DNA of 64,000 nucleotides, from assembly GCA_046335555.1 (NCBI GenBank), contig JBKDHA010000126.1:9832-73831 (forward strand), read 5' to 3'. The first letter of the stretch is position 1. The number at the start of each line of letters is the position of its first letter. Under the pieces are notes generated by a model. The model was not told the DNA's origin and did no database searches. It was given only the letters and a program-made list of their open reading frames with translations. Of the stretch, positions 10,044-50,509 are shown in pieces. This stretch comes from Bacteroidota bacterium. Its GTDB lineage: Bacteria > Bacteroidota > Bacteroidia > Palsa-965. Position numbers and translations under genes: made by a program.

Positions 10044-10076
10044 AAAAAAAGCCCTCCGGTTTTACCGGGAGGGCTT
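10044..10076 (-). terminator. Attenuator terminator upstream of hom
   Basis: AAGCCCTCCCGGT-AAA-ACCGGAGGGCTTTTTTT, located between the leader ORF and hom. Confidence 0.88.
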
Positions 10077-10103
10077 CGCTCAACACACCAACAATCAACT
10101 ATG

Positions 10104-10202
10104 CTATGACGCAGGTGTTCCCGGATCGATGCAAGAGCAACGACACATATACATGCTTGCGCACATAAATGCTGAACGGGCTGCAGAAATAGCTGGTCTC
10201 AT
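10104..10202 (-). CDS. Putative Met/Cys-rich attenuator leader peptide (32 aa)
   Basis: MRPAISAARSAFMCASMYMCRCSCIDPGTPAS*; 3 internal Met and 4 Cys within 12 codons; its 3' end pairs with the terminator 5' arm. Confidence 0.78.
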   Translation of the reverse strand: MRPAISAARSAFMCASMYMCRCSCIDPGTPAS

Positions 10203-10271
10203 GTTGAAATCTTCTATATCGGGTGTTGCTTCGGTTTGCCGACCAAAAGCAACTGTGTTTCTAATTCATAG

Positions 10272-10279
10272 CAAATATA
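10272..10279 (-). promoter_or_regulatory. Bacteroidota sigma70 -7 element for the hom leader
   Basis: TATATTTG matches TAnnTTTG. Confidence 0.7.
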
Positions 10280-10447
10280 TAGAGGTTTACTATATCTGCA
10301 CATATTTACTGATTATTTTTAAGTTATGGTTCGATATGAAAAGTCAGAAGCGTATTGCCAGATGCCAGTGTTAACAATGCTTTCAGACATACCGAAACAA
10401 GTCTAAATCGTTACAAAAAAATATTATTTTTTTATTTGTCGATACAC

Positions 10448-11143
10448 TTATTTATACTTCGTAAATGTGGCTGCCGGTCTGAACAGTCCTTTCTGCTGAA
10501 GCAATTTGAGTTGAGCGGGAGTAGCTGCAACGATAAAGTAATTGTCGCCCGCATTGCGCCGTGAAAAGGGGGTAACCTGCGAAAAAGTGCCGGCGTTATC
10601 AAAATTTTTGCCTGATTTATCCATCCGTTGAACGATAGCACGTTTTTCATCGCGGGTAAGGCTGGGTACGGCAATGATGAGTTGTTTTTTGCGCACTGAA
10701 ATCTGCATCACTTTCCAGGTCGAAGAATCGGCGCGGGCGCTGAGCCACCAGCTTCCGTTAAATGCTTTGAGAACAGTATCGCGTCCGAGGCGGTAGCGGT
10801 TTAGTGCGCGCGAAACTACGAGCATTGAATCGCCGGTAACGCGTTCTACAGTGCGCGAATCGCCGGCCCGGAAGATGAACTTATTGCCTGAACGCGAAAT
10901 TCCCATGCGTGCTGTATCACTCAGCGGAACGGTGCGGCGCGAGCTTCGGACAAGATCGAGCTGGCGGGGCAGAATGGTTAAGGTATCGGTGCCGCTCACC
11001 CAAATGCCGCGCAATACGGCAGGTGGTTCGGGCAATGCAGCTGTGCCTTGCGGCTGATCGGTTGTAAAACGCACATCACCATCGCACGAAGTTAAAGAGG
11101 CAAACAGCGGAGCTAATAGCAGAATGGAAAGTAAACGAGCCAT
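10448..11143 (-). CDS. Hypothetical lipoprotein
   Basis: Lipobox LTSC at residues 17-20 after a hydrophobic signal. Confidence 0.75.
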   Translation of the reverse strand: MARLLSILLLAPLFASLTSCDGDVRFTTDQPQGTAALPEPPAVLRGIWVSGTDTLTILPRQLDLVRSSRRTVPLSDTARMGISRSGNKFIFRAGDSRTVERVTGDSMLVVSRALNRYRLGRDTVLKAFNGSWWLSARADSSTWKVMQISVRKKQLIIAVPSLTRDEKRAIVQRMDKSGKNFDNAGTFSQVTPFSRRNAGDNYFIVAATPAQLKLLQQKGLFRPAATFTKYK

Positions 11144-11179
11144 AGCCGAAAGCTATGGAAAAATCGTGCCGTATTCTTT

Positions 11180-11341
11180 GAGCCTGTTTAAAAATCATCT
11201 TTCGGCTTTGTTATGACATATTTTTCCCCATCCTGCGTTGCATTTTTTGTCGATCCTCTCCTAGGATCGCCTTCAAAATGCGCCTTGTCTGAGAAAAAAT
11301 CTACTCATAACAAACCTCAAAAACGAATTTTAAACAGGCTC
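11180..11341. mobile_element. MITE-like element, 162 bp
   Basis: Perfect 14-bp terminal inverted repeat GAGCCTGTTTAAAA / TTTTAAACAGGCTC, inner inverted repeat TTTGTTATGA / TCATAACAAA; non-coding. Confidence 0.8.
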
Positions 11342-11354
11342 GTATAAAATACAA

Positions 11355-11762: not shown

Positions 11763-11995
11763 AATTCAGCAAAGTTAGAAAAGGTTTATTAAAGGCCATC
11801 GAAACTGAAATGCGAAAACGTAATATGCTCTTTATTAGGCTGTTTCAACGTTTTCATAACCTTATAAAAGCTCTCGATACGGTGACTGCTCAGAGCAGCT
11901 AACCGTATAATTTTTAAAATGCTGATTATTAGCCCGATAAGGAATATTTCTAAAAATAAATGCTGGACAATAAAATAAAATAAGGCTTTAGCCCG

Positions 11996-12013
11996 ACCGA
12001 ATGATTGTTCGGT
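11996..12013. promoter_or_regulatory. Putative TetR operator 1
   Basis: ACCGAA-TGATTG-TTCGGT palindrome, 15 bp before the tetR start. Confidence 0.7.
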
Positions 12014-15077: not shown

Positions 15078-15989
15078 TTACTTCTTTACCCCTTTCCGGT
15101 TAAACCGAATCCCAATCATCAGCTCGTGCGTTCCGGTGCTGTAATTGCGGAGATTGGTTGTTGTAAAATCATACGCATAACTCAGCATAAGATTTTCACG
15201 ATACAGAAAACCGAAATTAGCTGTTATCGCATCGAGGTGACGGTATGCACCGCCTATCCAAACTTTCTCTTTATAAATGATACGTACACCTGCATCAAAC
15301 TGAACAGGAACAGGTTTAACATACTTTACCAATACCGAAGGTTCGATTACAAAATCTTCGCCGGCTTTTTGGCGGTAACCGGCCATTGCAAAATAGTGCT
15401 GACTCATCACACTCGTAGTATTCGACATATAATCGAAAAACTTGAGTTTGTTTTGCTGTAACTGCATAGCCGAAGCACCCACCCAGAACCGATCATTGTG
15501 CAGCATAAATCCACCGCTGAAATCGGGAGTCAGCACGGTTTGCAGTCCATTGATGAGAATATTATCGCCGGGATCATGCAATTGAATTTTATGACCGTCG
15601 ATCATAAATTGTAAAATACCGGCCTGCAAACCAAACGAGAGTTTGAGTTTTTGTGTAAGCGGTGCGTGATACGCATACGACATATAAAATCCGGTTCGGC
15701 GGGTTGGCCCCACGTTATCAGTAAACAACTGCGCCCCGATTCCCATGTTGCGGTATTTCAGCGGGCCGTTTAAACTGAGAATGTAAGTTCGCGGCGCATC
15801 AGTAATTCCGCCCCACTGATAGCGATTGGATGAAATGCCTGTAAAATACCCGTTACGCCCGCCCGCAGCCGGATTCAACACATACTCATTAAGTACATAC
15901 TGGCTGTAATGCGGAAGTTGCTGCGCATACATTTGCGCTGCCGAAAACAACAGTACAAACAGAACGATATGTTTTAGTTTCTGTTGCAT
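15078..15989 (-). CDS. PorP/SprF-family T9SS outer membrane protein
   Basis: QQLPHYSQY...NPAAGG, RYQWGG...APRTY, C-terminal YAYDFTT...GTHELMIG; immediately follows a type-B CTD protein. Confidence 0.93.
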   Translation of the reverse strand: MQQKLKHIVLFVLLFSAAQMYAQQLPHYSQYVLNEYVLNPAAGGRNGYFTGISSNRYQWGGITDAPRTYILSLNGPLKYRNMGIGAQLFTDNVGPTRRTGFYMSYAYHAPLTQKLKLSFGLQAGILQFMIDGHKIQLHDPGDNILINGLQTVLTPDFSGGFMLHNDRFWVGASAMQLQQNKLKFFDYMSNTTSVMSQHYFAMAGYRQKAGEDFVIEPSVLVKYVKPVPVQFDAGVRIIYKEKVWIGGAYRHLDAITANFGFLYRENLMLSYAYDFTTTNLRNYSTGTHELMIGIRFNRKGVKK

Positions 15990-15993
15990 CGCA

Positions 15994-18900
15994 TTAGCGC
16001 ATTATGGTTATTGGCCCGGTGTACGGTTCGGGGAAAAGCGGATCATTCAGATCAATTACATAATAGTAAGTTCCTACCGGAAGTTCTTGTCCATCGTACC
16101 GGCCATCCCACGGCGTATTGTAGCCAACTGAGCGGAACAGCAATTCGCCCCAACGGTTATACACTTCTACTTCGCAATTTTCAAATGGTGTAATGTTATC
16201 GATCTGCCAGAAATCATTCACACCATCACCATTCGGAGTGAAACCATTGGGGAACGAAATTGCAGGAAGCACAATCAGTTCCATAGTATCACTTGCGAAA
16301 CAGCCGTTGGTATCTGTTACAAGTAATACATAAGTTGTTGAAGTCACAGGATCTGCAGTAGGATTAGGAACCGATGCACTTGTAAGATCTGCAGAGGGTG
16401 TCCACAAAAATGTAGCTCCTGAAGGGCCGGCCGGAGAGCCGCCAATTACCGCACTGCCTCCTGATGCAATTGAAATATCAGGGCCTGCGTTTGCCAGCGG
16501 AGGAGCAATACTGTTTACCACAACTGTGTCGGTATGCGTACAAATTCCGTTAGCGGCTACAAGTAAATAGGTATGAATGCCGGGGCCGGAATTTACAATC
16601 AATGAATCATCAGAACCAACAGGTGTCATTCCGGGTAATTCAAACCAGCTGTAAGATGTTGCATTAGTACTTGCTGCTGCGCTGAGAACTACTGTTGCGG
16701 GATAGCAGAAACTTGTATCTGCACCGGCATCTGCAATAACTTCAATTGATGCATTTATTACAACAGTATCGGTAAATGTACATCCATTGGCATCTGTTAC
16801 AGTTACGAAATATGTTCCGGGAAGCACTCCACTCAAATCTTCAATTGTACTGGTAAAAGATCCGGGGCCTATCCAACTGTAAGAATAGGGCAATGTGCCG
16901 CCACTAAAGGTCAAATCAGCTGATCCGTCGGCTGTTGTATTGCAACTTGCATCAGTAATAACAGGTGCGGCTGAAACAAGAGCAGTTGGCTCAGCAACCG
17001 AATCGCTGAGCGATATTGTACATCCGTTTGCATCTCTAATAGTTACCGTGTAAACTCCGGGACAAAGTCCGCTTGCTGTTGCTGATGTTTGACTATTACT
17101 CCAGTTGTATGAATAAGGCAATGTTCCGCCAAATGCAATTGCAGTAATTGTTCCGTTGCATACACCTGCACAAAGCGCATCACTCACCACAGGTTGCGAT
17201 GCTGTAAGCGCGGTTACATTATTAATGATAACCTGCGCTGTGCTTACGCAACCGGTTGCATCAGTTACCTGCACAAGATAAGTACCCGCACAAAGTCCGG
17301 TTAATGAAGCGCTGGTACTTCCATTGCTCCAGAGATATGTAAACGGACCATTCGGGCCGGCAGCCGTTGCCGAAGCTGTACCGTCGCAAACTCCATTACA
17401 GCTTATTGCGGTACTGTTTGTAGTAATTGTAATCTGCGCATTGAAATTGCTGACCGGTATAACGCGAACTTCTGTACACCCAATGCTATCGGTAACAGTA
17501 ACTGTATAAAGCCCTGCACAAAGTCCGTTCACCACAGGTGTAGTTTGTCCGCCCGGTGCCCAAAGGAAAGTAAGCGGACCGTTTCCGCCGGAAGCATTCA
17601 GGTTAATATTCCCATTGCAAAAACCGCAGTCGGTATTAGTAATAATGGGGTTGAGTACAATTGCATTGGGAGCTGTAACACTAAACGAATCAATAAGTAC
17701 ACAACCAACCGAATCGGTAATTTGCACAGTGTAGGTTCCTGCACATAATGACGACACAGCAGATGTTGTTTGTGAGCCGGGCAACCATAAATAAGTATAA
17801 GGTTGTGTACCGCCGCTGGGAGCTAAAGCTATTGAACCATCACAAGTATTACCGCAGGTAACATTTGTAATTACTTCGTTGGCTGCCGAAGGTCCATTAC
17901 TGTTACTCATGTTTAACGTGAACACTTCTGTACATCCCAGCGCATCAGTTACCTGCACCGCATAAACACCTGCACACAAACCGCTGAGCGTCGGAGTTGT
18001 GGCACCATTGCTCCAGAGATAGGTGTATGGAGCAGTACCACCGCTTGTTGCAGAAGTTATTGAACCATTACAAAAACCACAGCTGGGCTGTACTAACGAC
18101 GGGTTGAGTTGAATAGCTTGCGGATCAACAATAGAAACCGGTATCACGGAATTACAGCCATCATCGTCAGTAACCGTTACACTGTATGTGCCCGCACACA
18201 AACCTGTTGCTGTTTGTGTTGACTGACCAAGCGGATCTGTCCACTGATACACAAACGGTGATGTGCCTACAGTTACAGTTACAGCAGCTGAAGCATTGCA
18301 GTCTGCATTGCAAAGCGAAGGCGTTGCAGCAACAGAAGCAACAAGAACATTATACGGACTGACTGTAACTGATTCGGTTTGTGTACATCCGTTTACATCA
18401 GTAATTGTAACTGTATATCCGCCCGAACACAATCCTGAAATGGCAGAAGTGGTTTGTCCGCCCGGCGCCCATGAATAGGTATATGCAGGATTTCCGCCGA
18501 TTGTATTTAGAGATATTGCACCATCACAAATACCGGTGCAGGTAGTATTTGTCACAAACGGATTACCGGCAATTGCAGGTGGTGAATTAATCGTAACCGG
18601 AGAAAAACGGATACAGCCATTGGCATCTGTTACCTGAAGAAAATAACTTCCGGCACACATACCCGTAAGCGTGTTTACTGTTTGTCCGCCAGGATTCCAG
18701 AGATAAGTATAAGGCGATGTGCCTCCGATAGGTATAACCGTTGCGCTTCCGTCGCACGAGCCGGGACAGCTTACATCGCTTGTAGAAACAGTTTCGCCGG
18801 TTGGGCCGTTTGAGTTATTGAGTGTAAGTGTAAAGCTTTGTGTGCATCCGCTGGCATCAGTAACAGTAACCGAATATATTCCTGCACACAAATTTGATTG

Positions 18901-21900
18901 TGAAGCCACAGGTGGTAAACTACCTGACCAAGAATATGTATATGTACCTGATCCGCCCGAAGGAGCTACAGTAATAGAACCATTGCATATTCCGCAGGTT
19001 GCTGGAGAACTGGCTACTGCAAGTGTAATTGGCGCAACCGGAATAACATTTACAGTTTGAATATCAACACAACCGTTTGCATCACGCACAGTAACGGTGT
19101 AAGTCCCGGCACAAAGTCCCGAAATGGTTGGAGTTGTTTGTCCGCCCGGCGCCCAGAGATAAGTGTAACCTCCACTGCCTCCTATTGGTGTTGCCGTTGC
19201 TGTTCCATCGCACGACCCGTTGCACGAAGGACTTGTAAAAGTTGTATTGGCCTGAAGCAATGCAGGCTGAGCAACCGTTGCAGATGCTGTTGTCTGACAT
19301 CCGTTAATATCTGCTATTGTTACCGTATAAGTACCGGCACACAATCCGCTTACATTAGAAGTGGTTTGTCCGCCCGGAGCCCAGGTATAAGAATAAGACG
19401 GAGTACCGCCAGTGCCAACAACTGAAACAGTTCCGCTGCAATCGCCAAAACATGGCACCGTGCTGCCTGAAGTTGTTGCTGCCAGTACAGGCGGAGCAGA
19501 AACAGTAACCGATTGAACTACAGAACAACCATTCGCATCAGAAGTGGTAAGACTGTATGCACCCGCACAAAGCCCGCTTACACTTGATGTGGTTTGTCCG
19601 CCCGGTGCCCAGAGGAATGTATAACTGCCTACTCCGCCTGTTGGCGATGCCGAAGCACTTCCATTACATTGACCGGCACACACTTCTTCAGTTGTAGTTA
19701 TAACACTGATGAGAGAATCAGGTTCATTCAATAAAACATTACCGGTTACCGTACATCCGTTAACATCTGTAATTGTTACCGTGTAGGTAGCCGGACAGAG
19801 ATTGCCAATTGAGGAAACAATTTGTCCGTTTGACCAGAGGTATGAATAAGGACCAACACCGCCGGTAACATTAGCAGATGCAGTACCATTACATTGGCCG
19901 TAACAAACTATATCAGTTCCTGATGTTCCCGGATTAAGTGCTGCCGGTTCAGTGATTGAATAGATAAGTGTACGTGAGCAGCCTGCGGCATCTGTAAGTA
20001 TAAGCGTATAAGTACCAGCGCATAATCCTGAAATAGTTGGTGTTGTTCCTCCTGTACTCCAGTTATAAGTATAAGGAGATGTGCCTCCGCTTGCTGCAAC
20101 AGTAATGGAACCGTTGCAAAGTCCGTTACACGTTACATTGGTTATTGTTGCCGGTGCTGTAAGAATTTGCGGTTCAATAATAACCACAGTTACAAATGTG
20201 ATGCACCCAATTGCATCTGTAACCTGAACTGTGTATGTACCCGCACAAAGACCTGTTATTGTTGGAGTTCCGTCGCCAGCCGGTGATCCGGGGAACCAAT
20301 CGTATGTAAACGGAGCTGCACCACCTGTTACTGTTGCTGTTGCAGATCCGTTGCAGACTCCATTGCAACTTGCGTTTGTTGGCGTTGCAGTAACCGAAGG
20401 CCCGCTTGTATTACTAACCGGAATTACTACTTGTTGCGAACATCCTGAGGCATCCGTAATAGTTACAGAATAAATTCCGGGACAAAGACCATTGATGCCT
20501 GATGTTGTTTGTCCGCCCGGTGCCCAGAGGTAAGTATAACCCGGTGTTCCTCCTGAAGCAGATGTAGCTATTGCCCCATCACAAAGCGTACAGGTTGCAG
20601 GTGTTATACTTGGGGATGCCGTGATTTGAGTGGGCTGAGTAATTGAAATAATAATAGTTGTATCACAGCTATTTGCATCGCTTATCGTTACGCTGTAAGT
20701 CCCAGCACAAAGGCCGGTAACTGATGCTGTTGTTTGTCCCCCGGGCAGCCACAAATAAGTATAAGTTCCGGTACCACCACTTACCACGGTGGTTGCACTT
20801 CCGTCGCAGGCATTAAAGCACGACACATCAGATGATGAAGCTTGAGCTTGAAGCTGAGGAGGATTGGTAAATGTAATAGTTGATGTATTGAAACAGCCGC
20901 TGGCATCTGTAGCTGTTACAGTATATGTTCCGGCACAAAGACCGGTAATATTTTGCGAAATAATATTTCCCGGCGACCAAACATAAGTGTAGGGTGAAAT
21001 ACCACCATTTGCATTCGCACTTGCAATACCATCACAAACTCCGTAGCAACTCGGCGTATTTCCAACACTGCTCACAACAATATTAACCACCTGATTTACA
21101 GCTACCGATACGGATGTTACACAACCATTGGCATCAGTTATTGTGCATGTATAATTACCACGACATAATCCGCTTGCTGTTGGGTTTGTTCCACCGGTAG
21201 GCGACCAACTGTATGTATAGGATTGTGTTCCGCCGCTCACATTCACTGTTGCTGTTCCGTCACACAACCCGCAACTGGCAGTAGTTGCTGTAATTGTTGC
21301 AAGCAGCGGCTGAGGTTGTGTAATAGTTACTGTTGATGATGATGTGCAGCCATTAGCATCTGTTATTGTAAGTGAGTATGAACCACTGCACAAACCAGTA
21401 ATGGTTGATGTAGTTTGTGCACCGGGTTGCCAAAGAAAAGAGTACGGAGATGTGCCTCCGCCCGGATTTGATGTTGCTGTTCCATCGCAAATACCGGAGC
21501 AACTTGCATTTGTTGATGTAACGTTAGGTGTTATTGGCAAAGGCTGATTAACTGTCATTACCAATGTTGTATCACAACCATTGGCATCAGTAACAGTACA
21601 GCTGTAAGTCCCGGCACATAATCCAGAAATCGAAGAAGTGGTTTGTCCGCCCGGCGACCAGAGATAGCTGTATGGTGCAGTTGCGCCGGAAACAGAAACC
21701 GATGCACCTCCGTTACATTGTCCGAAACACAATACATTAGTTACAGAGGTGCTGACCTGATAAGGCGGTGGCTGTGTAATTGTAACGATATTATTTGCAA
21801 TACATCCATTCGCATCGGTAACAGTAACTGTGTATGAACCTGCGCACAAATTATTAACTACAGGCGTGGTTTGTCCGCCTGGTGCCCAGAGATAAGTATA

Positions 21901-24216
21901 TCCCGGAGTGCCACCTGAAACAACAACTGCGGCAGTAGCATTGCAGTTATTGGTGCAAAGCAGTTGAGTAGTGTTTACCGAAATTGTAAGCGGATTAGGC
22001 TGTGTTATGGTTACTGTTTGATTTCGGGTACAACCTTGTGCATCAGTAACAGTTAATGTATATGAGCCTGCACACAAACCCGTTACCGACGATGTAGTTT
22101 GTCCGCCCGGTAACCAGAGAAATGTATATGGCCCAGTACCACCGGATGGAGAAGATGCTGCAGTTCCGTTGCACGCTGTATTACAGTTTACATTAGTTTG
22201 TGTTACGTTCGCTGTAATTGGCTGAGGTTGTGTAATTGTAACAGTTGTGGTGGCAGTGCAGGAATTTACATCAGTTACAGTAAGTGTATAACTACCGGAG
22301 CAAAGATTAGAAATAGTAGGCGTGGTTATATTTCCGGGTTGCCAAACATACGTATATGGTGCAGTTCCGCCTGTCTGACCGGCAGTTGCAGTTCCGTTAC
22401 ACAAACTATTACAGGTTACATTTGTTGAAGTTGCCTGTGCAACAAGTAACTGAGGTTCTGTAATAGTAATAACCGCATTTACTGAACAAGCATTTTGATC
22501 TGTTACTGTAACAGTGTATGAACCCGGACACAAACTTGAAGCAGTTGCACCGTTACCACCCGAAGGCAACCAATTGTATGTGTAGGTTGGTGAACCACCT
22601 GAAGCATTTGCAGATGCTATTCCATTGCATAAACCAAAACAAGTAACATTTGTAACTGAAGGGGCTGTAAGCAGTTGCGGCGGCTGTGTAATTGTTACCT
22701 GCTGCTGAACAGTGCAGCTGTTAGCATCTGTAATGTTAACTGTATAAGTACCTGCACAAAGATTCGTAATGGTTTGCGTGGTTTGTCCGCCCGGCAGCCA
22801 GACGTAACTGAAGGGAGCTGTACCTCCTGAAACGTTTGCTGTTGCGGTTCCGTCGCACACACCAAAACAAGAAGCATTGACTGATGAAATACTGGCTTGA
22901 AGCGGAGAAGGTTGTGTAATTACTGCAACATAAGATGATGTGCAATTATTGAAGTCTGTTACTGTGCAGGTATAACTTCCCGGACAAAGACCATTGATAC
23001 TTGAAGTGGTTTGTCCGCCCGGTGACCAGAGGAAAGAATAGGGTAATGTACCTCCGGTTGGTGCAACTGATGCTGTGCCGTTACATGAATTATTACAGGT
23101 TACATCAGTATTGCTGCCGTTGGGCAGAAGAGCCGCCGGTTGTGTAATTAAAGATTGCTGTGTAATCTGACATCCATTAAGATCTGTAATAGTAAGCGTG
23201 TAAGTTCCTGCACACTGATTGGTGATAACCGGTGTTGTTTGGTTTCCGGGAAGCCAGCTGTAAGTATAACCCGGTGTTCCGCCAGCTACAGTTGCCGAAC
23301 TTGAACCATTGCATTGTCCGTTGCAAAGTGGCGATGTATTGGAAAAGAATATAACTAACGGAGGCGGATCAGTTACAATGGCAAATGCCGGAACCTGATC
23401 GCCAAGTGTGAGGTCTGTAACAACCACAAGATATGTTCCTGCACAAAGTCCGGTTGCCGTTGGTGTTGTTTGGTTGCCGGGTGTCCAGAGGTAAGAGAAA
23501 TTCCCTGACCCGCCGACTACGTTTGCTGTAGCGGTTGCGTTACACTGCCCGTTGCAGGCATTGGGAATAACGGTAGTAGTTACAATATGGTTTTGCGGTG
23601 ATTGAGGCGCTGAAATATTTACTACCTGCGATGGAGTTGTGATGCGCGCTCCCTGATGAACAACAATATCCTGTGCAATCAATTTAAAATCTTGGCTCAT
23701 GCCAAAACTGGCAGAACGGATTTCAACTGTATTGGCTACGTAAAGATTTCCCAAAACAACAACTTGAGGAATATCAAAAATGATTTTGCCTTTTGTAATC
23801 CCAGTTTTTCCAAAAACAAGTTTCTGAGAATTTTCAAAAATCCATGTCCCTGTAAAATCATCACGGAATTTATCTCCGCCATGAAATTCACTGAGGTGAA
23901 TTTTTCCTGCACCTTCAAGCTTTACTTCATAAAAATCTTCCAGCCACAAACCAATGCCCTGTCCGATTATTAAACTTCGGCAAAAAACATCAGAATTTAT
24001 GGTAACTGTTAAATCATTGCTGAGTGAATAGATTTCAACATCATCATTGCTTCCCGGCAAACGGCTTGCGGATTCTTTTTTAGCTTCTCCAACTTTCCAA
24101 TTTGAAAGCTCATTCCAGTTACCGCTGCCTCCCGTCCAATAAAAGACTTCTGCCTGCAATGGCAAAGCCAACACAAACAGCAAAAACAGGACAAAAAATG
24201 AATTTATTCTTTTCAC
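15994..24216 (-). CDS. Giant SprB-repeat T9SS adhesin with type-B (gliding-motility-associated) CTD, 2740 aa
   Basis: Signal peptide; 30 counted ~76-aa repeats (C..C.G...GG..PY.Y.W.PGGQTT....LC.G.Y..TVTD.NGC); CTD FPNGFTPNGDGVNDFW...NRWG...WDG...GTYYYVI. Confidence 0.95.
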   Translation of the reverse strand: MKRINSFFVLFLLFVLALPLQAEVFYWTGGSGNWNELSNWKVGEAKKESASRLPGSNDDVEIYSLSNDLTVTINSDVFCRSLIIGQGIGLWLEDFYEVKLEGAGKIHLSEFHGGDKFRDDFTGTWIFENSQKLVFGKTGITKGKIIFDIPQVVVLGNLYVANTVEIRSASFGMSQDFKLIAQDIVVHQGARITTPSQVVNISAPQSPQNHIVTTTVIPNACNGQCNATATANVVGGSGNFSYLWTPGNQTTPTATGLCAGTYLVVVTDLTLGDQVPAFAIVTDPPPLVIFFSNTSPLCNGQCNGSSSATVAGGTPGYTYSWLPGNQTTPVITNQCAGTYTLTITDLNGCQITQQSLITQPAALLPNGSNTDVTCNNSCNGTASVAPTGGTLPYSFLWSPGGQTTSSINGLCPGSYTCTVTDFNNCTSSYVAVITQPSPLQASISSVNASCFGVCDGTATANVSGGTAPFSYVWLPGGQTTQTITNLCAGTYTVNITDANSCTVQQQVTITQPPQLLTAPSVTNVTCFGLCNGIASANASGGSPTYTYNWLPSGGNGATASSLCPGSYTVTVTDQNACSVNAVITITEPQLLVAQATSTNVTCNSLCNGTATAGQTGGTAPYTYVWQPGNITTPTISNLCSGSYTLTVTDVNSCTATTTVTITQPQPITANVTQTNVNCNTACNGTAASSPSGGTGPYTFLWLPGGQTTSSVTGLCAGSYTLTVTDAQGCTRNQTVTITQPNPLTISVNTTQLLCTNNCNATAAVVVSGGTPGYTYLWAPGGQTTPVVNNLCAGSYTVTVTDANGCIANNIVTITQPPPYQVSTSVTNVLCFGQCNGGASVSVSGATAPYSYLWSPGGQTTSSISGLCAGTYSCTVTDANGCDTTLVMTVNQPLPITPNVTSTNASCSGICDGTATSNPGGGTSPYSFLWQPGAQTTSTITGLCSGSYSLTITDANGCTSSSTVTITQPQPLLATITATTASCGLCDGTATVNVSGGTQSYTYSWSPTGGTNPTASGLCRGNYTCTITDANGCVTSVSVAVNQVVNIVVSSVGNTPSCYGVCDGIASANANGGISPYTYVWSPGNIISQNITGLCAGTYTVTATDASGCFNTSTITFTNPPQLQAQASSSDVSCFNACDGSATTVVSGGTGTYTYLWLPGGQTTASVTGLCAGTYSVTISDANSCDTTIIISITQPTQITASPSITPATCTLCDGAIATSASGGTPGYTYLWAPGGQTTSGINGLCPGIYSVTITDASGCSQQVVIPVSNTSGPSVTATPTNASCNGVCNGSATATVTGGAAPFTYDWFPGSPAGDGTPTITGLCAGTYTVQVTDAIGCITFVTVVIIEPQILTAPATITNVTCNGLCNGSITVAASGGTSPYTYNWSTGGTTPTISGLCAGTYTLILTDAAGCSRTLIYSITEPAALNPGTSGTDIVCYGQCNGTASANVTGGVGPYSYLWSNGQIVSSIGNLCPATYTVTITDVNGCTVTGNVLLNEPDSLISVITTTEEVCAGQCNGSASASPTGGVGSYTFLWAPGGQTTSSVSGLCAGAYSLTTSDANGCSVVQSVTVSAPPVLAATTSGSTVPCFGDCSGTVSVVGTGGTPSYSYTWAPGGQTTSNVSGLCAGTYTVTIADINGCQTTASATVAQPALLQANTTFTSPSCNGSCDGTATATPIGGSGGYTYLWAPGGQTTPTISGLCAGTYTVTVRDANGCVDIQTVNVIPVAPITLAVASSPATCGICNGSITVAPSGGSGTYTYSWSGSLPPVASQSNLCAGIYSVTVTDASGCTQSFTLTLNNSNGPTGETVSTSDVSCPGSCDGSATVIPIGGTSPYTYLWNPGGQTVNTLTGMCAGSYFLQVTDANGCIRFSPVTINSPPAIAGNPFVTNTTCTGICDGAISLNTIGGNPAYTYSWAPGGQTTSAISGLCSGGYTVTITDVNGCTQTESVTVSPYNVLVASVAATPSLCNADCNASAAVTVTVGTSPFVYQWTDPLGQSTQTATGLCAGTYSVTVTDDDGCNSVIPVSIVDPQAIQLNPSLVQPSCGFCNGSITSATSGGTAPYTYLWSNGATTPTLSGLCAGVYAVQVTDALGCTEVFTLNMSNSNGPSAANEVITNVTCGNTCDGSIALAPSGGTQPYTYLWLPGSQTTSAVSSLCAGTYTVQITDSVGCVLIDSFSVTAPNAIVLNPIITNTDCGFCNGNINLNASGGNGPLTFLWAPGGQTTPVVNGLCAGLYTVTVTDSIGCTEVRVIPVSNFNAQITITTNSTAISCNGVCDGTASATAAGPNGPFTYLWSNGSTSASLTGLCAGTYLVQVTDATGCVSTAQVIINNVTALTASQPVVSDALCAGVCNGTITAIAFGGTLPYSYNWSNSQTSATASGLCPGVYTVTIRDANGCTISLSDSVAEPTALVSAAPVITDASCNTTADGSADLTFSGGTLPYSYSWIGPGSFTSTIEDLSGVLPGTYFVTVTDANGCTFTDTVVINASIEVIADAGADTSFCYPATVVLSAAASTNATSYSWFELPGMTPVGSDDSLIVNSGPGIHTYLLVAANGICTHTDTVVVNSIAPPLANAGPDISIASGGSAVIGGSPAGPSGATFLWTPSADLTSASVPNPTADPVTSTTYVLLVTDTNGCFASDTMELIVLPAISFPNGFTPNGDGVNDFWQIDNITPFENCEVEVYNRWGELLFRSVGYNTPWDGRYDGQELPVGTYYYVIDLNDPLFPEPYTGPITIMR

Positions 24217-44646: not shown

Positions 44647-44961
44647 TCACGGTACACAGAGCCTGATCTGCTGCTGCCCCGGTGCCAGCCTGATCTGACA
44701 GGCCAGCCGTGAATTGGTGTACACAACAGGCAGCGTATCCAGCATATTCAGTTCCTCATCGCCGGCCGGGGGCAGCGGGGGCTCCGCTGAAAGGATGCGT
44801 ACATGGCAGGTGGCACACAAGGCCATGCCGCCACACGTTCCTTCTATTCCTTTTATCTCCATGCCTTTGAGCAACTCCATCAGACTAAGCGCGATATTAT
44901 CCGGCACATCAACGCGCTGCAATTCACCCCCGGTTTCTATTTCAACAACAATATCATTCAT
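44647..44961 (-). CDS. 2Fe-2S ferredoxin (adrenodoxin type)
   Basis: CGGMALCATCH...RLACQI. Confidence 0.95.
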   Translation of the reverse strand: MNDIVVEIETGGELQRVDVPDNIALSLMELLKGMEIKGIEGTCGGMALCATCHVRILSAEPPLPPAGDEELNMLDTLPVVYTNSRLACQIRLAPGQQQIRLCVP

Positions 44962-44964
44962 ACG

Positions 44965-45975
44965 TTAAAATGTATTTACACCATTCACTGTGGTGTACTT
45001 CATGGTGTAATGCACACCGGGATTGATGTATTTATAGGCGCTATGGCTCATCATGGCTGCTTCATGAAATCCGCAAAGAATGAGCTTGAGTTTATTTTTG
45101 TACGTGTTGATATCACCAATCGCATAAATCCCTTTTACAGAAGTAGAATAGTCTTCCGGATTTACCACCACGGCCTGCTTCTCAATATCAAGCCCCCAGT
45201 GTGAGGCGGGCCCCAGTTTGGGGCTGAGACCAAAGAGAATAATCAGTTCATCGGCTTCAATATCATGTATGGCCTGTGTATTGAGATTTTTCACACTCAC
45301 CGTACTTAACCGGCCGAGTCCGTTTACATTTTCAACGGATGTATGCAAAAGAAGATTGATTAAACCTGATTCGGCCAATGCTTTTACGCGCTCCGCACTG
45401 TCGGGCACACCTCTGAACTGATCGCTGCGATGCACCAACGTAAGCGAACTGCATACCGAAGCCAGCTGCAGTGTCCAGTCGAGTGCACTGTCGCCACCAC
45501 CAGCAATTACAACTTTCCTGTTTCTGAAATATTCCGGTTCACGCACAAAATAATGTATGCCTTTACCGTTCTCAAATGCATCAAGGCCTTTCACTTCAGG
45601 CTTTCGCGGTTCAAAACAACCCAGTCCGCCCGCAATTACCACGGCCTTTCCCGAAACAACTGTGCCTAAATTTGTTGTAACCTGAAAATTACATTCATCA
45701 ATTTTCTGAATTGTTTCCACACGTTCACCAAGTGTAAAACCGGGTTTAAACGGGGCAGCCTGTTGCAGCAGATTGTCAATTAATTCCTGCGCCAGCACAG
45801 TTGGAAAACCCGGAATATCATAAATTGGTTTCCGGGGATAAATTTCGGAAAGTTGCCCGCCGGGCTGGGGAAGGTAATCGATGAGGTGACATCGCATTTT
45901 CAGCAGTCCGGCTTCAAATACAGCAAACAAGCCTACCGGGCCGGCCCCGATGATGATAAGGTCTGTGGTAATCAT
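44965..45975 (-). CDS. Thioredoxin-reductase-like ferredoxin-NADP reductase
   Basis: IIGAGPVG, YPRKPIYDIPG, GGGDSALDW, GDINTY; no CxxC. Confidence 0.9.
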   Translation of the reverse strand: MITTDLIIIGAGPVGLFAVFEAGLLKMRCHLIDYLPQPGGQLSEIYPRKPIYDIPGFPTVLAQELIDNLLQQAAPFKPGFTLGERVETIQKIDECNFQVTTNLGTVVSGKAVVIAGGLGCFEPRKPEVKGLDAFENGKGIHYFVREPEYFRNRKVVIAGGGDSALDWTLQLASVCSSLTLVHRSDQFRGVPDSAERVKALAESGLINLLLHTSVENVNGLGRLSTVSVKNLNTQAIHDIEADELIILFGLSPKLGPASHWGLDIEKQAVVVNPEDYSTSVKGIYAIGDINTYKNKLKLILCGFHEAAMMSHSAYKYINPGVHYTMKYTTVNGVNTF

Positions 45976-46577
45976 GAACTTTTTTTCTTTTGTGAGGAAA
46001 GTAATCGGGTGAATTGGTTGAGTTGTTTCACCTTATCGGCGAAGTCGCCTTTCAAATAACTGCGTATGGTTTGCAGGTGATTAAGTGATTCGTTGATTTC
46101 TTCGGGGAATGCCTCTTCAAAAATTTCGCGGAGACGTTTAGCCACTGTGGGTGATTTCCCGTTTGTGGAAATAGCAATTTTCACTGCACCTTTTCTCACT
46201 ACTGATCCGAGATAAAAATCACAGAGATCAGGAGTATCAGCTGTATTTACAAGCAGGCCGTGTTGCCTGGCCTGTGTGCGTATTTGTGCACTGGTTTGTA
46301 TGCTGCCCGTAGCAAGAATTACGAGATCTTTTCCTTCCAGATCAGTCGCTTCAAAAGCCCGTTCGATAATCACTACCGCATCAAACCCCTGAGCAATAAG
46401 ACGAAATTCAGGCAATACCGAAATGGCTACTACCGTAACCTGTGCACGGGGCGAATTCTGCAACAATGCAGTAAGTTTTTCGCAGGCTACAAATCCGCCT
46501 CCGACCAGCAGCACGTGTAATTGTTCGAGCTTGAGAAAGACAGGGAAAAGCGGATTGACGGCTTCAATGCTGCTCAT
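45972..46577 (-). CDS. Precorrin-2 dehydrogenase/sirohydrochlorin ferrochelatase (CysG N-terminal/Met8-like)
   Basis: FPVFLKL, VLLVGGGFVA, VNTADTPDLCDF, ISTNGKSP. Confidence 0.92.
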   Translation of the reverse strand: MSSIEAVNPLFPVFLKLEQLHVLLVGGGFVACEKLTALLQNSPRAQVTVVAISVLPEFRLIAQGFDAVVIIERAFEATDLEGKDLVILATGSIQTSAQIRTQARQHGLLVNTADTPDLCDFYLGSVVRKGAVKIAISTNGKSPTVAKRLREIFEEAFPEEINESLNHLQTIRSYLKGDFADKVKQLNQFTRLLSSQKKKSS

Positions 46578-47341
46578 GAGGCAAAACGGGTTAGTTCGTG
46601 CAGCAGTGTTTGCTCCGTAGCGAGCGAAAGTTTATGTTTCACCACTTCACCAATTACAATCACTGCCGGCGAATCATGCGTTTCGGCCAGTGTGGCAAGA
46701 TTTCCCACCACACCGGTACTCACATTTTGCTGCTGCAATGTTCCGTGGCTGATAACGGCTGCAGGAGTGTCGCCGGCACCGGCCTGCCTGTAAACAGAAC
46801 TTATTTCGGCCGCTTTTCCAAGCCCCATGAGTACCACCACAGTAGCTGTTGATCTTGCTGCCAATGTCAGATCGGCCGACAGGGCCGCATTTCCGGTGGT
46901 GGCGGTAATTACCCAGAAACTTTCGCTCACACCGCGTAAGGTAACCGGAATGCCGCAGGTACCTGGAACCGCCACCGCACTGCTCAACCCCGGCACATAG
47001 GCTGTGTGCAATCCATGCGCTGCAGCATATTCAAGCTCTTCGGCTCCGCGTCCAAACACAAACGGATCACCTCCTTTAAGCCGTATAACATGCCCGCAGC
47101 GATGCGCATACGAAACAATCATCCGATTTATTTCCTGTTGCGAATATGTATGGCGTGCCTTGCGTTTCCCCACAAACAGCCTGATGCAATGCGCAGGAAC
47201 AAACTCCAGCAATTCATCACTCACCAATGCATCATACATTAACACATCGGCTGTTTGAATTACACGCAGTGCTTTAAGCGTAATCAGTTCTGCATTTCCC
47301 GGACCAGCGCCCAATACCGTTAACCGTGGTGTTTTATTCAT
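46574..47341 (-). CDS. cobA: Uroporphyrinogen-III C-methyltransferase
   Basis: GAGPGNAELITLKA, YDALV, RLKGGDPFVFGRG; start MNKTPRL. Confidence 0.95.
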   Translation of the reverse strand: MNKTPRLTVLGAGPGNAELITLKALRVIQTADVLMYDALVSDELLEFVPAHCIRLFVGKRKARHTYSQQEINRMIVSYAHRCGHVIRLKGGDPFVFGRGAEELEYAAAHGLHTAYVPGLSSAVAVPGTCGIPVTLRGVSESFWVITATTGNAALSADLTLAARSTATVVVLMGLGKAAEISSVYRQAGAGDTPAAVISHGTLQQQNVSTGVVGNLATLAETHDSPAVIVIGEVVKHKLSLATEQTLLHELTRFAS

Positions 47342-49466
47342 GTCCGGAGGCTTTTTGCGTTGATCTTTCGGCAGCAGCATGTGTTTTCAGCAAATCAATC
47401 CACCCGGTTGCCTGCTCAAGGTAGCGGGCAGCAAACCCGGGTGAGGCGGGCTGCGAATTAAGCTGAAGGATAAATGCACTGAAACTGCCCTGTCCGCTTA
47501 TTTTTCCGGTTTCGATAAATTGTTTTTCAAAATCGCTGATAAGTGCGTGATGGGTATTTACATGATGCCCGTTTTTCAGCAGCAAGGCTTTAGCCGTATG
47601 GATAAGCGCTGAGTAGCTGAAATAAATACTGTCGGCAAAGCGGCTTTCAGCCAATGCTTCGCGGGCTGATAACACTTTCTCATCTGCTTCAAAAAAGAGC
47701 GTTTGCACAAGATCAATCATTACTCCCGCACACTCACCCACACCAATTGCAGTCTGGAATTTTTCATCTGCTCCCCAATCCCTGAATGCTTCATCATCCA
47801 GGTTACTCAGATCTGCCAGCGGTTTCAGCAACTGATAAAAATACTCCTTCCCTTTGCGATGAAAATACGCGGTGAATGTTTCGCCCGGCTGCTTTTCCGA
47901 TTCAAAATCATTAAGCAGTTTGCGTAATGCATCGGGCGCCCGGCGGGAAGGAATTTTTATAATTTTCTCGGCAAGACGACCTGTGCCGTTACCTGTACTT
48001 CCGCCGCCGCCAAGCACCTGCAACGCAGGCACCACCGCATTGCCCGATTTAAACGAACTGCCATGAAATCCGATCGCTGCCAGTCCATGCTGCCCGCATG
48101 AATTCATACAACCACTTATTTTAATATCCAGCTGCCTGTCGAAAAGCAGATGCGGGAAATCGTCTTCAATCACTTCGCCAAGTGCCAGCGCCACGTGTGT
48201 GCTGTTTGAAATAGCCAGATTACAGGTGTCGGTTCCCGGGCATGCAGTAACGTCTGCCGCTGAACCAAACCCCGGCTTTGCAAGACCAGCCGCCAGCAGA
48301 TCAGTGTAAAGCGCCTGCAGCTCGGGCAAGGTTACATAACGCAGCAGCAGTCCCTGATTAATCGTAATACGGGCATCGTCACTGCGCGAGTATTTGTCAA
48401 TACAGTCTGCAAGTTTGCGTGCAGTTCCGGCATGTATATTTCCAAGCGGCACACGCACATATACACCGTAATATCCTTGCTGCTTCTGTTCAAACACATT
48501 CGAGCGCATCCACGCGGAAAAGCCTTCGGGCGGAGTTGCAGGTACAGCAACCGGAGAAGCTTCTCGCACATAAGGCTTTTCAAATTCATCATATGCAATG
48601 TGGTAATCCTGCACGGTAAGCGCCGGCGTTATTTCGTCAAGCAACTGCAGAAATGCATCCACACCAAGCTGATGAATAAGGTATTTTATGCGTGCCTTGT
48701 GCCGGCTGTGCCGCTCGCCGTAACGGTCGAAAATGCGCAGCACCGATTCGATGAAGGGAATTAGTCTGGATGCCGGTAAAAAAGTATGCAGCAGCTTTGC
48801 CGTGAAGGGCTGTGCCCCCAGTCCGCCACCTGCAAGCACACGGAAGCCGCGTTCGCCGGATTCATTGTACGCAGCAATAAAGCCAATATCATGTATCCAT
48901 GTTAATGCGGCATCGGCTTCACTGTTGGAGAATGCAATTTTTATTTTACGTCCCATCTCCTGCGCAAACGGTTTACGCAGAAAGTAGCGGAATACGGCAT
49001 CGGCATAGGCGCTTACATCAAAGGCTTCACCAGGCCATACACCCGATTCGGCCGGCGAAGTAATGTTGCGTACAGTATTTCCGCAGGCTTCACGCAATGT
49101 AATTTCATCCTGTTCAAGCTTTGCCCAGATTTCCGGCGTATGCTCCAGACTGATGTGATGAAGCTGAATATCCTGACGGGTTGTAAAATGCAGATTGCCG
49201 TTTGAGTATTGTTCGCTGAGAGCTGCTATTTTACGTAACTGTGCGGATGAAATTTTTCCAAACGGAATTTTTATCCTCACCATTTGCACACCTTGCTGCC
49301 GTTGACCGTAAACCCCGCGTGCAAGGCGCAGACTTCTGAATTTTTCAGGATCAATAAGCCCTTCACGGAAAGCCTGGATTTTTTTAGCAAGATCAACAAT
49401 GTCTTTTTCAACAAGCACTTTAGTGCCGTGGCTGATGAGTTCGAATTCAGTACGAAAACTCTGCAT
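47334..49466 (-). CDS. Ferredoxin-dependent sulfite/nitrite reductase with C-terminal HEPN-like domain
   Basis: GVYGQRQ, TTRQDIQLH, siroheme/4Fe-4S cysteines ACPGTDTC and SGCMNSC; C-terminal extension ALAESRFADSIYFSYSALIHTAKALL. Confidence 0.92.
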   Translation of the reverse strand: MQSFRTEFELISHGTKVLVEKDIVDLAKKIQAFREGLIDPEKFRSLRLARGVYGQRQQGVQMVRIKIPFGKISSAQLRKIAALSEQYSNGNLHFTTRQDIQLHHISLEHTPEIWAKLEQDEITLREACGNTVRNITSPAESGVWPGEAFDVSAYADAVFRYFLRKPFAQEMGRKIKIAFSNSEADAALTWIHDIGFIAAYNESGERGFRVLAGGGLGAQPFTAKLLHTFLPASRLIPFIESVLRIFDRYGERHSRHKARIKYLIHQLGVDAFLQLLDEITPALTVQDYHIAYDEFEKPYVREASPVAVPATPPEGFSAWMRSNVFEQKQQGYYGVYVRVPLGNIHAGTARKLADCIDKYSRSDDARITINQGLLLRYVTLPELQALYTDLLAAGLAKPGFGSAADVTACPGTDTCNLAISNSTHVALALGEVIEDDFPHLLFDRQLDIKISGCMNSCGQHGLAAIGFHGSSFKSGNAVVPALQVLGGGGSTGNGTGRLAEKIIKIPSRRAPDALRKLLNDFESEKQPGETFTAYFHRKGKEYFYQLLKPLADLSNLDDEAFRDWGADEKFQTAIGVGECAGVMIDLVQTLFFEADEKVLSAREALAESRFADSIYFSYSALIHTAKALLLKNGHHVNTHHALISDFEKQFIETGKISGQGSFSAFILQLNSQPASPGFAARYLEQATGWIDLLKTHAAAERSTQKASGHE

Positions 49467-49473
49467 GGGTAAA

Positions 49474-50346
49474 TCAGGATTTTACAAATTCATAAATGAG
49501 ATGCCAGTCTTCATTGCTCAGTGTAATAGTATGAGCACTTGCCGCATTGCGAATGCGTTGCAGATCAAGACTACCGATAATTGGCAGGGCCTGCAGCTTG
49601 TAAAGCCATGCCACAGCCACCTGCTCTACATTGGCCGAATAACGTTCTGCAATTTCGGCAAGCAATGAGCGGATTGCTGTAGTACGCGCATCGGTACCTG
49701 TTAAAATCCGTCCCCCGGCCAGCGGCGCAAGTGCAAGCGGTTTGCTGTACTGCTCACGGATCAGATCAAGACGACCATCGCGTATGGCATCCGTTTGAAG
49801 TACACTCAGCTCGATATGATTTGTGACTACCGGAATACTCAAATGAGCAGAAAGCAGTTTATGCTGAAACACATTGAAATTTGATAAACCGATGTAATGA
49901 ATTTTTCTTTTCAATACCAGATCGGTAAGTACGGATGCCGTTTCTTCAGCATTGAACAAGGGATCAAAATCATGCAGCAACAATACATCTACATAATCCG
50001 TTCCCAGGTTTTTGAGCAACTGGTCAACCGTGCTGCGGATCGATTCCTGACTCAGATCGGCGTATAGTTTACCGCTGTGTTTGTTTTTCTGCCATCCCGC
50101 GCGAGCTGCAATAACAACATCTTCACGCTGCACTGCACCGGTTTTGATCAGCTTACCAAAACTCTTCTCCACCTGTTCTGTCCCGTTTGGATTATTCAGA
50201 TCAAATGAAGTGATTCCCAGTTGCTGGCACTCTTCCACAACGGAAGTAAGTAAATCCGTATCCTGCAATTCCTGCTCCCAGCGCCAGAAGCCATATATAG
50301 CCGCTGAAACTTCCGGCCCTGATTCGCTTAATAGATGTTTTTCCAT
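49474..50346 (-). CDS. Aldo/keto reductase (YdhF-like)
   Basis: YGFWRW, LGTDYVDVLLLH, IGLSNF, NHIELS, PLAGG; start MEKHLL. Confidence 0.88.
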   Translation of the reverse strand: MEKHLLSESGPEVSAAIYGFWRWEQELQDTDLLTSVVEECQQLGITSFDLNNPNGTEQVEKSFGKLIKTGAVQREDVVIAARAGWQKNKHSGKLYADLSQESIRSTVDQLLKNLGTDYVDVLLLHDFDPLFNAEETASVLTDLVLKRKIHYIGLSNFNVFQHKLLSAHLSIPVVTNHIELSVLQTDAIRDGRLDLIREQYSKPLALAPLAGGRILTGTDARTTAIRSLLAEIAERYSANVEQVAVAWLYKLQALPIIGSLDLQRIRNAASAHTITLSNEDWHLIYEFVKS

Positions 50347-50371
50347 TGTTGTTTCTATACTATTATTAAAT

Positions 50372-50403
50372 AAAAAACCCTTCTCGCGGCAATGCGGAAG
50401 GGT
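50372..50403 (-). terminator. Attenuator terminator upstream of the sulfite reductase operon
   Basis: ACCCTTC-CGC-ATTGCC-GCG-A-GAAGGGT-TTTTT, 26 nt before the first start codon. Confidence 0.85.
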
Positions 50404-50434
50404 AACTGTATTGGTTGAATACGAACACAATCCG

Positions 50435-50494
50435 CTATTGCCTGTTTCGCATACAGCAGGTTGAACAAAAAGCAGGCATGTGTTTATGTTTCAT
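50435..50494 (-). CDS. Putative Cys-sensing attenuator leader peptide (19 aa)
   Basis: MKHKHMPAFCSTCCMRNRQ*; lies between a promoter and a terminator, with antiterminator pairing. Confidence 0.82.
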   Translation of the reverse strand: MKHKHMPAFCSTCCMRNRQ

Positions 50495-50501
50495 TCGGGT
50501 G

Positions 50502-50509
50502 CAAATGTA
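50502..50509 (-). promoter_or_regulatory. -7 element for the Cys leader/sulfite reductase operon
   Basis: TACATTTG, 7 nt before the leader ATG. Confidence 0.75.

Follow-up and report, generated by a model that had tools for sequence, protein, structure and literature searches.

Two Cys/Met-rich leaders on the minus strand

The DNA analysed here (the window) is a stretch of 64,000 nucleotides from a Bacteroidota bacterium of the Palsa-965 lineage (GenBank assembly GCA_046335555.1, contig JBKDHA010000126.1, positions 9,832 to 73,831), and its host is a freshwater or lake member of the Bacteroidia that is present in many lake metagenomes and whose relatives are uncultured Bacteroidia metagenome-assembled genomes. 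Two leaders lie on the minus strand at opposite ends of positions 10044-50509, about 40 kb apart: the hom leader (site 1) precedes hom, a homoserine dehydrogenase gene, and the sir leader (site 2) precedes an operon that contains the sulfite reductase gene sir. A preliminary description of this DNA, made from its letters alone, had reported that each leader comprises a TAnnTTTG box, a short open reading frame (sORF) with clustered Cys and Met codons and a terminator, and these elements are present as described. The features of the hom leader are listed below, with the basis of each at the end of its line.

10272..10279, minus: Bacteroidota -7 promoter box TATATTTG (TAnnTTTG type), read in the sequence
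10225..10253, minus: hairpin in the 5' untranslated region (UTR) ahead of the leader ORF, GTTGCTTTTGGT..ACCGAAGCAAC, read in the sequence
10104..10202, minus: leader sORF, 32 codons, MRPAISAARSAFMCASMYMCRCSCIDPGTPAS, unannotated, ORF translation
10131..10166, minus: candidate regulatory codon cluster, codons 13-24, M C A S M Y M C R C S C, codon reading
10114..10124, minus: proposed antiterminator 5' strand CCGGGAACACC, codons 27-30, ribosome-masked folds
10044..10076, minus: intrinsic terminator, stem 10076-10051 and T7 10050-10044, folding, -20.4 kcal/mol
8652..9872, minus: hom, monofunctional homoserine dehydrogenase, 406 aa, ATG at 9872, Pfam Homoserine_dh and NAD_binding_3

Three Met and four Cys codons account for 7 of the 12 residues in the cluster of the hom leader. 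The promoter box is separated from the sORF ATG by 69 nt, and a 171-nt spacer (9873-10043) runs from the terminator to the hom start codon. The proposed partners of CCGGGAACACC are GGUGU (10089-10085) and UCCCGG (10071-10066) in the 5' arm of the terminator. If the leader is functional, its link to a monofunctional hom would suggest that the enzyme is the methionine-branch isoenzyme. The corresponding features of the sir leader and of the operon that it would regulate are as follows.

50502..50509, minus: -7 promoter box TACATTTG (TAnnTTTG type), 7 nt from the sORF ATG and so near-leaderless, sequence
50435..50494, minus: leader sORF, 19 codons, MKHKHMPAFCSTCCMRNRQ, unannotated, ORF translation
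50449..50460, minus: region 1 CCUGCUGUAUGC, over the codons T12 C13 C14 M15, full-length minimum-free-energy fold
50431..50442, minus: region 2 GGCAAUAGCGGA, antiterminator 5' strand including the stop codon UAG, ribosome-masked folds
50388..50398, minus: region 3 UCCGCAUUGCC, common to the antiterminator and to the terminator 5' half and loop, folds
50372..50403, minus: intrinsic terminator, stem 50403-50377 and T6 50377-50372, the first U closing the stem, folding, -15.6 kcal/mol
44647..50346, minus: operon AKR-sir-cobA-sirC-FNR-ferredoxin, ORFs tightly packed or overlapping, Pfam
49474-50346, minus: aldo/keto reductase (AKR), ATG at 50346, Pfam
47334-49466, minus: sir, sulfite reductase with a C-terminal HEPN domain, Pfam
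46574-47380, minus: cobA-type uroporphyrin methylase, Pfam
45972-46577, minus: sirC-type siroheme synthase, Pfam
44965-45975, minus: thioredoxin-reductase-like FNR, Pfam
44647-44961, minus: 2Fe-2S ferredoxin, Pfam

Here 5 of 12 residues are Cys or Met (2 Met, 3 Cys). The gene upstream of the sir leader encodes a carbohydrate-binding-module protein sorted by the type IX secretion system and has its own terminator at 50624-50596, so that the terminator of the leader is additional to it and internal to the transcription unit. The HEPN domain of the window sulfite reductase spans residues 588-656 and is also found in the Vicingus homologue at L322; all relatives are of about 700 aa.

Placement of the operon and of hom by Pfam agrees with the proposal that one leader would gate sulfite reduction and siroheme supply and the other homoserine supply. 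The statement that the two leaders have no obvious similarity likewise holds, save for their GC-rich terminator arms (GCCCTCCCGG versus CCCTTCCGC). The suggestion that one is tuned to Cys and the other to Met had to be given up, as both are mixed in the counts given above and the Met fraction in relatives shows no difference between hom leaders (0.52) and sir leaders (0.48, sd 0.14).

Cys and Met codons are clustered beyond chance, both in the window and family-wide. Ranked by Cys+Met density among the 847 ATG-started sORFs of 5-50 codons in the six frames of the window, the hom sORF comes first. The other Cys+Met-rich sORFs were rejected as leaders: those at 17690-17788, 46984-47109, 49911-49988 and 62206-62322 lie inside the spans of long ORFs, and that at 1125-1211 is a tandem-repeat artefact downstream of dnaG. 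For the wider comparison, in which 337 related loci were scanned overall, the relatives' sample consisted of 80 hom loci and 80 sir loci, drawn from collections with one genome per species, and all sORFs followed by a terminator-like hairpin in these 160 loci gave a list of 531 candidates. Within that list, 32 sORFs have Cys or Met in >=5 of 8 residues where residue shuffling predicts 0.3, an enrichment of about 100-fold, and every one of the next-ranking residue pairs contains Cys or Met. At >=4 of 8 residues the gene strand holds 42 such sORFs and the opposite strand 1. The preliminary description had staked its idea of a Cys/Met regulon on further leaders and on enrichment above that of random sORFs, and the relatives supply both.

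Conservation, leader RNA and competing structures

Related locus L001, whose hom protein is 97% identical to that of the window, provides a measure of constraint on the hom leader. The sORF is identical at 97 of 99 nt, with both changes outside the Cys/Met codons, and the segment from stop codon to terminator at 60 of 60, as against 79.3% identity in the spacer between terminator and hom and 88.0% in the hom coding sequence, where 131 of the 146 differences fall at third codon positions. At the rate of change of the spacer, 159 nt would show <=2 differences with a probability of about 9e-14. The 5' UTR hairpin differs between strains and in L001. Contigs from four lake metagenomes tell the same story within the lineage, with positions 10044-10202 free of variants while the 5' UTR and spacer vary; the spacer (9873-10043) is hypervariable, and in one metagenome 74 nt of it (9957-10030) are swapped for 76 other letters. 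The region of the sir leader (49900-50700) is 100% identical in metagenome contigs of runs X1, X2, X7 and X14 and was not found at >=80% in contigs of X10, X16, X19 and X29, all of which hold the hom region (9850-10300), contigs being unable to prove absence; strains of this freshwater lineage may differ in whether they carry the sulfite-reduction operon.

Metatranscriptome evidence takes the form of assembled contigs and speaks to presence only. A freshwater metatranscriptome contains one 178-nt contig, 100% identical to the window, that covers 10077-10254, from shortly past the promoter box to the foot of the terminator, and contigs of the same run held nothing on the body of hom. A second RNA-type run contributed a 115-nt piece at 10080-10194. 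The leader-only contig fits what a terminated leader transcript would leave behind.

Equilibrium folding of the full-length RNAs is uninformative, and ribosome-masked folds were therefore computed on RNA cut before the terminator 3' arm, with a footprint masked from -15 to +14 nt of the A site. The sir leader has competing helices. Its region 2:region 3 duplex reaches -17.0 kcal/mol compared with -7.8±2.3 kcal/mol in shuffled sequences (p=0.0005), and this pairing persists with the A site at codons 1-13, is weaker at Cys14 and no longer forms from Met15 to the stop codon. The region 1:region 2 pairing of the untranslated RNA reaches -13.4 against -8.4±2.7 kcal/mol in shuffles (p=0.05). A classical four-region logic of 1:2, 2:3 and 3:4 pairing is well supported for this leader by the modelled folds, and by its geometry the effective sensing codons would be Cys10, Cys13 and, in part, Cys14. 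For the hom leader, masked folds place the occupancy of the terminator 5' arm at about 0.60 with the ribosome at codons 1-16 and 20-22, at 0.41-0.56 at codons 17-19 and at 0.37-0.43 from codon 23 on. A CCGGGA/ACACC structure forms in the shortened RNA and disappears once the ribosome has reached codon 23, its energy lying within the shuffled range, and the hom antiterminator is best described as a plausible part of the model rather than a demonstrated feature. The earlier claim of an antiterminator overlapping the 3' end of each ORF is upheld for the sir leader by its 2:3 duplex, whereas the CCGGGA:UCCCGG pairing of the hom leader is no stronger than in shuffles.

The same switch logic emerges from computed folds of 46 leaders of the class, in which the terminator 5' arm is captured at 0.75 with the ribosome on Cys/Met codons compared with 0.36 with the ribosome on the stop codon. 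Thirty-seven leaders move toward higher capture on Cys/Met codons and 0 in reverse, and real capture (0.76) exceeds that with shuffled linkers (0.44; Wilcoxon p=1e-8). For the hom leaders of L020 and L022 the antiterminator test returned 0/25 shuffles.

Recurrence before sulfur genes in relatives

The device recurs before sir, AKR-sir, cysH-hom, hom and metY-metX-hom in many Bacteroidota relatives, as expected of the Cys/Met regulon that had been proposed, and several loci of one pathway, two of them in the window, carry the same kind of sORF. By strict criteria, a Cys/Met sORF followed by a terminator precedes sir in 34 of the 80 loci, and relaxing the terminator criterion adds at least 9 further sir loci with a Cys- or Cys/Met-rich sORF, including the pure polycysteine sORF of Pontibacter. 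The closest synteny to site 2 is the arrangement leader-AKR(~292 aa)-sir at L083, L084, L087, L088, L092, L099, L100, L105, L111 and L117. Leaders of this AKR-sir group share a motif in which the stop codon and CGGA(AGG) are followed by a small AT-rich hairpin and the terminator arm CCCCTCCG, and the TAG-CGGA of the window sir leader aligns with the stop-codon motif; covariation analysis of the group gave no signal, the stop-codon/CGGAAGG region being nearly invariant. At L154 (2041-2501), two Cys/Met leader-terminator modules in tandem are separated from the sir start codon by a tRNA-Cys (GCA) gene, and the tRNA that these leaders would read may there be co-transcribed with the operon it regulates. 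Within the operon itself, three other loci (L090:4621-4692, L093:4606-4659, L097:4606-4659) have a second Cys/Met mini-ORF, ..KYCCCCMIML, placed between sir and cobA.

A Cys/Met leader is found immediately upstream of hom in L001, L020 (MCCMVCV), L022 (..AMYCMMMRF) and L266 (..TMMCSMMCF), the last being the one additional hom leader from a metagenome scan for closer hom relatives, whose best match was 77% identical. A Cys/Met leader precedes cysH-hom in L012. A scan for cysH yielded 17 loci, mostly from Flavobacteriales and without leaders, with the exception of two Vicingus loci in which metY-metX-hom-cysH is preceded by MMLCMCCCGMC (L329:70-105) and MCCMCCCMC (L337:68-97). These Vicingus mini-ORFs consist almost wholly of Cys/Met codons and have no obvious U-tract terminator, and they may work differently.

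Most near relatives have hom at the end of a ..TauE/sirC-like-cysH-hom unit, and in several of them a leader-AKR-sir unit lies immediately 3' of hom, giving the order cysH-hom-[leader]-AKR-sir. Because hom adjoins the leader-AKR-sir cluster in relatives, the two units of the window, 40 kb apart, look like the products of a split of one ancestral sulfur cluster, with the detached hom carrying its own leader. The preliminary description had called the two leaders independent, a term that this apparent shared origin of the units qualifies.

A TAnnTTTG box occurs within <=150 nt upstream of 25 of the 46 leaders, the background being 0.07 per 150 nt, with near-variants at most of the others. In most leaders the box ends 4-14 nt before the ATG, and the sir leader with its 7 nt falls in this range while the hom leader is an exception. 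If transcription starts just past the box, many sORFs of the set would be leaderless or near-leaderless.

A comparison with SAM riboswitches had also been suggested. Rfam, SAM riboswitches included, gave no match at either window leader at the gathering threshold and no relevant one at E<=1, and none in the 20 nearest hom loci. Elsewhere SAM-I does occur before these genes. In Bacteroidales, 63 of 77 loci (L161-L240; for example L161:904-1110) have a SAM-I riboswitch and, after it, a 22-codon sORF, MNSIHLTHNNFIMPLMPMCMCR, upstream of metY-hom. The peptide encoded by this sORF is conserved (codon-position entropy 0.44/0.32/0.63, the third position being the most variable), and a U-tract terminator is mostly lacking; the sORF may be of the arrest type or a second sensor. 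In Pontibacter, a SAM-I aptamer lies directly before the polycysteine leader of sir. Riboswitch lineages thus pair SAM-I with a sORF that is rich in Cys and Met in Bacteroidales and purely Cys in Pontibacter, and riboswitch-free lineages have mixed leaders, a distribution that fits a replacement or merging of two inputs and is not proof of either.

Elsewhere in the window, Pfam identified no other Cys/Met biosynthesis genes and no Rrf2 regulator among the scanned long ORFs, which comprised those before 55455 other than one of 2740 aa. That ORF (15078-24216) adjoins a PorP/SprF type IX secretion gene. The sole Rfam match in the window is a DUF3800-VI RNA motif at 61777-61830 on the minus strand (44.5 bits against a gathering score of 35). 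A selD-like gene of the AIR-synthase family and, after it, a selU-like rhodanese-domain gene (30253-32329) suggest that selenium is used in tRNA modification. About three tandem copies of an 85-90 nt unit, each with two hairpins (CATCCGGTTTGTAACCGGATG and GAATTCAGTTTGTAACTGAATTC), lie at 900-1215 on the minus strand, in the dnaG 3' region between convergent genes, and the repeat yields a spurious 'CKMH' sORF.

Attenuation model, alternatives and known systems

Together, these observations make it probable that both elements are ribosome-mediated (leader-peptide) transcription attenuators in which Cys (UGY) and Met (AUG) serve as the regulatory codons. In this model, transcription would start a few bases past the TAnnTTTG box, and a ribosome would translate the sORF as RNA polymerase transcribes the leader. 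With Cys-tRNA and Met-tRNA plentiful, the ribosome would reach the stop codon and cover the antiterminator 5' strand, which in the sir leader holds the stop codon itself; the terminator hairpin would then form and transcription would end before AKR-sir or hom. Scarcity of charged tRNA-Cys or elongator tRNA-Met would stall the ribosome in the Cys/Met cluster, leaving the antiterminator strand free to capture the terminator 5' arm and allowing read-through. The units so controlled would be separate, one for sulfite reduction with siroheme and electron supply and the other for the supply of homoserine for direct sulfhydrylation, and with the same signal read at separate transcription units these would therefore form a ribosome-directed regulon, to which further genes of the host genome may belong.

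Several observations weigh against this model. With full-length RNAs at equilibrium, the terminator always wins in ribosome-masked folds of both leaders, which is normal for terminators of such strength, and the model hinges on kinetics. The antiterminator duplex of the hom leader (-11.8 kcal/mol) is no better than in shuffles (p=0.46), and neither its whole antiterminator domain (p=0.21) nor its long-range 1:2 helix (p=0.45) stands out. Taken individually, the window leaders are unremarkable in the automatic 46-leader test, in the case of the sir leader because the script's definition of the arm missed region 3. The metatranscriptome search found no run and no contig with sir leader RNA. Some relatives have Cys codons right before the stop (..QRCC*), which in a simple model should not promote read-through. 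In 20 sir loci, moreover, an Rrf2-family (CymR/IscR-like) gene lies directly upstream of the leader (among them L087:858-1340, L099:896-1357 and L109:1602-2150), where it may provide a second, protein-based layer of control.

These Rrf2 neighbours lend some support to an account without ribosomes, in which the terminators are leaky or are regulated by an Rrf2/CymR-like repressor, an RNA-binding protein or an undescribed metabolite-binding RNA, and the Cys/Met codons are a by-product of pairing strands rich in AUG, UGC and UGU. Conservation of the window hom leader at all three codon positions is what such RNA-level constraint predicts, and the Cys codons of the sir leader themselves make up pairing region 1. 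We nevertheless regard this account as improbable, since the leaders of different lineages are unrelated in sequence yet always keep an in-frame ATG near the promoter box, a Cys+Met cluster and a stop codon beside the antiterminator strand, since enrichment is confined to the Cys+Met pair, and since neither window leader has an Rrf2 gene nearby or an Rfam match. A shade less probable still is that Cys/Met stalling acts mainly on translation of the first gene or on mRNA stability rather than on termination. The weakness of the hom antiterminator is compatible with this, as are the Vicingus mini-ORFs and the Bacteroidales sORF after SAM-I with their lack of obvious U-tract terminators, and mycobacterial polycysteine sORFs offer a precedent (bioRxiv 10.1101/834739). 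Both window leaders, in contrast, end in canonical GC-rich hairpins followed by 6-7 U, these hairpins stand 25-170 nt before the start codons with no overlap, and the leader-only RNA contig fits termination. It is established, in addition, that initiation in Bacteroidota is not led by Shine-Dalgarno sequences and does not rely on Shine-Dalgarno sites that could be sequestered.

We consider it very unlikely that the sORFs encode small Cys-rich peptides acting in trans, as metal-binding, redox or ribosomally synthesized and modified peptide (RiPP) precursors, with co-expression rather than sensing as the reason for their position. Leader peptides with functions in trans exist, as reported for peTrpL (PMC7298713), and the Bacteroidales sORF is conserved at the peptide level; the peptides of the class at hand vary freely in length and sequence save for their Cys/Met content, no modification or export genes lie nearby among the Pfam-scanned window ORFs, and the stop codon sits precisely at the antiterminator strand. 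Least probable of all is a chance association of ordinary terminators with random short ORFs. The structural statistics of the hom leader alone would be unremarkable under it, and it is effectively refuted by the Cys+Met enrichment, the 46-leader switch tests, the first rank of the hom sORF and the conservation with L001.

Beyond the two window leaders, the attenuation model extends to a broader proposal, to which we assign about even chances, of a phylum-wide 'sulfur ribulon' read by ribosomes in Bacteroidota. Mostly near-leaderless sORFs with interleaved Cys and Met codons would be sensors with a dual input, the charging of tRNA-Cys and that of elongator tRNA-Met, and transcription termination would gate sulfide supply (sir, siroheme, cysH) and the methionine carbon branch (hom, metY, metX). 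The system would replace SAM-I in lineages like that of the host, while sister lineages keep SAM-I beside a Cys/Met-rich sORF or a pure-Cys leader, and the detached hom would have kept or regained its leader after break-up of the cysH-hom-[leader]-AKR-sir arrangement. If so, a detached hom with its own leader would speak for selection on the signal itself and not on the operon. Finding the device at two separated units in one genome, including a hom that stands alone, is what the present case specifically adds and argues for regulon-level control by an element that is real and conserved. Were the proposal correct, it would explain how the many environmental Bacteroidota that have no SAM riboswitch at these genes match sulfate assimilation to demand, and dozens of unannotated sORFs before sulfur genes would be functional.

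Control of Cys and Met genes is usually ascribed to SAM riboswitches, T-boxes or the regulators CysB, CymR and MetJ. To our knowledge, no classical leader-peptide attenuator has been established for Met or Cys, and the Cys and Met pair of regulatory codons is not in the textbook set. The full-text literature searched, to which subscription journals are largely external, contained no published Cys/Met leader from Bacteroidota. Like the classical attenuators (trpL, hisL, leuL, thrL, pheL and ilv; the Yanofsky model), the window leaders have a 5' short ORF with clustered codons for the end product and an intrinsic terminator, and the sir leader has a predicted antiterminator that is mutually exclusive with the terminator and set by ribosome position, and even the four-region layout. 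As judged from sequence, they have the testable defining features of leader-peptide attenuators, the hom antiterminator excepted. They differ from the classical examples in belonging to Bacteroidota, with a -7 TAnnTTTG promoter and no use of Shine-Dalgarno sequences, in the near-leaderless position of the sORF 4-14 nt past the promoter box in most members, and in the interleaving of two amino acids, Cys and Met, in one cluster.

SAM-I (the S-box) controls the same genes, before metY-hom in Bacteroidales and before the polycysteine leader of sir in Pontibacter, and senses SAM directly through an aptamer; no such aptamer is present at the window leaders or the 20 nearest hom loci. The thrA leader of Pasteurellales is reportedly predicted to include Met codons (work of Vitreschak et al. 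from 2004 in FEMS Microbiol Lett), and so also places a homoserine dehydrogenase gene under a Met-codon leader peptide; it is multivalent for Thr, Ile and Met, precedes a bifunctional aspartokinase-homoserine dehydrogenase and occurs in Gammaproteobacteria, whereas the window has a monofunctional hom and Met with Cys codons. Candidate Cys leader peptides have reportedly been placed upstream of actinobacterial cys operons, in work attributed to Seliverstov et al. from 2005. The uORFC-8-2 motif upstream of cysS in Rhodobacterales is a predicted Cys-codon upstream ORF (uORF) with a terminator (Brewer et al. 2021, PMC8632094). Both of these lack Met codons and stand before other genes (a tRNA synthetase gene and cys operons) in other phyla, and the window leaders matched no Rfam model.

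The regulon idea has its parallel in the leaderless polycysteine sORFs of mycobacteria, the 'Cys ribulon', which act at the level of translation and have no terminators (Canestrari et al. 2020, bioRxiv 10.1101/834739). There too, unannotated Cys-rich sORFs lie at the very 5' end of several cysteine-metabolism operons, and a common amino-acid dependence creates a regulon coordinated by ribosomes, a concept identical to that of the preliminary description. Because the mycobacterial sORFs act on translation, by stalling that relieves sequestration of the ribosome-binding site, and have no terminators, the window leaders, with canonical terminators well upstream of the structural starts, are not members of that family. 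They also belong to another phylum and have no sequence relationship to it, and in place of a pure-Cys tract they combine Cys with Met and reach the methionine carbon branch (hom, metY, metX). If the attenuation model is correct, it would extend ribosome-mediated attenuation to Bacteroidota, with Cys and Met codons read together, and would provide a second example of a ribosome-directed regulon, mechanistically unlike the mycobacterial one.

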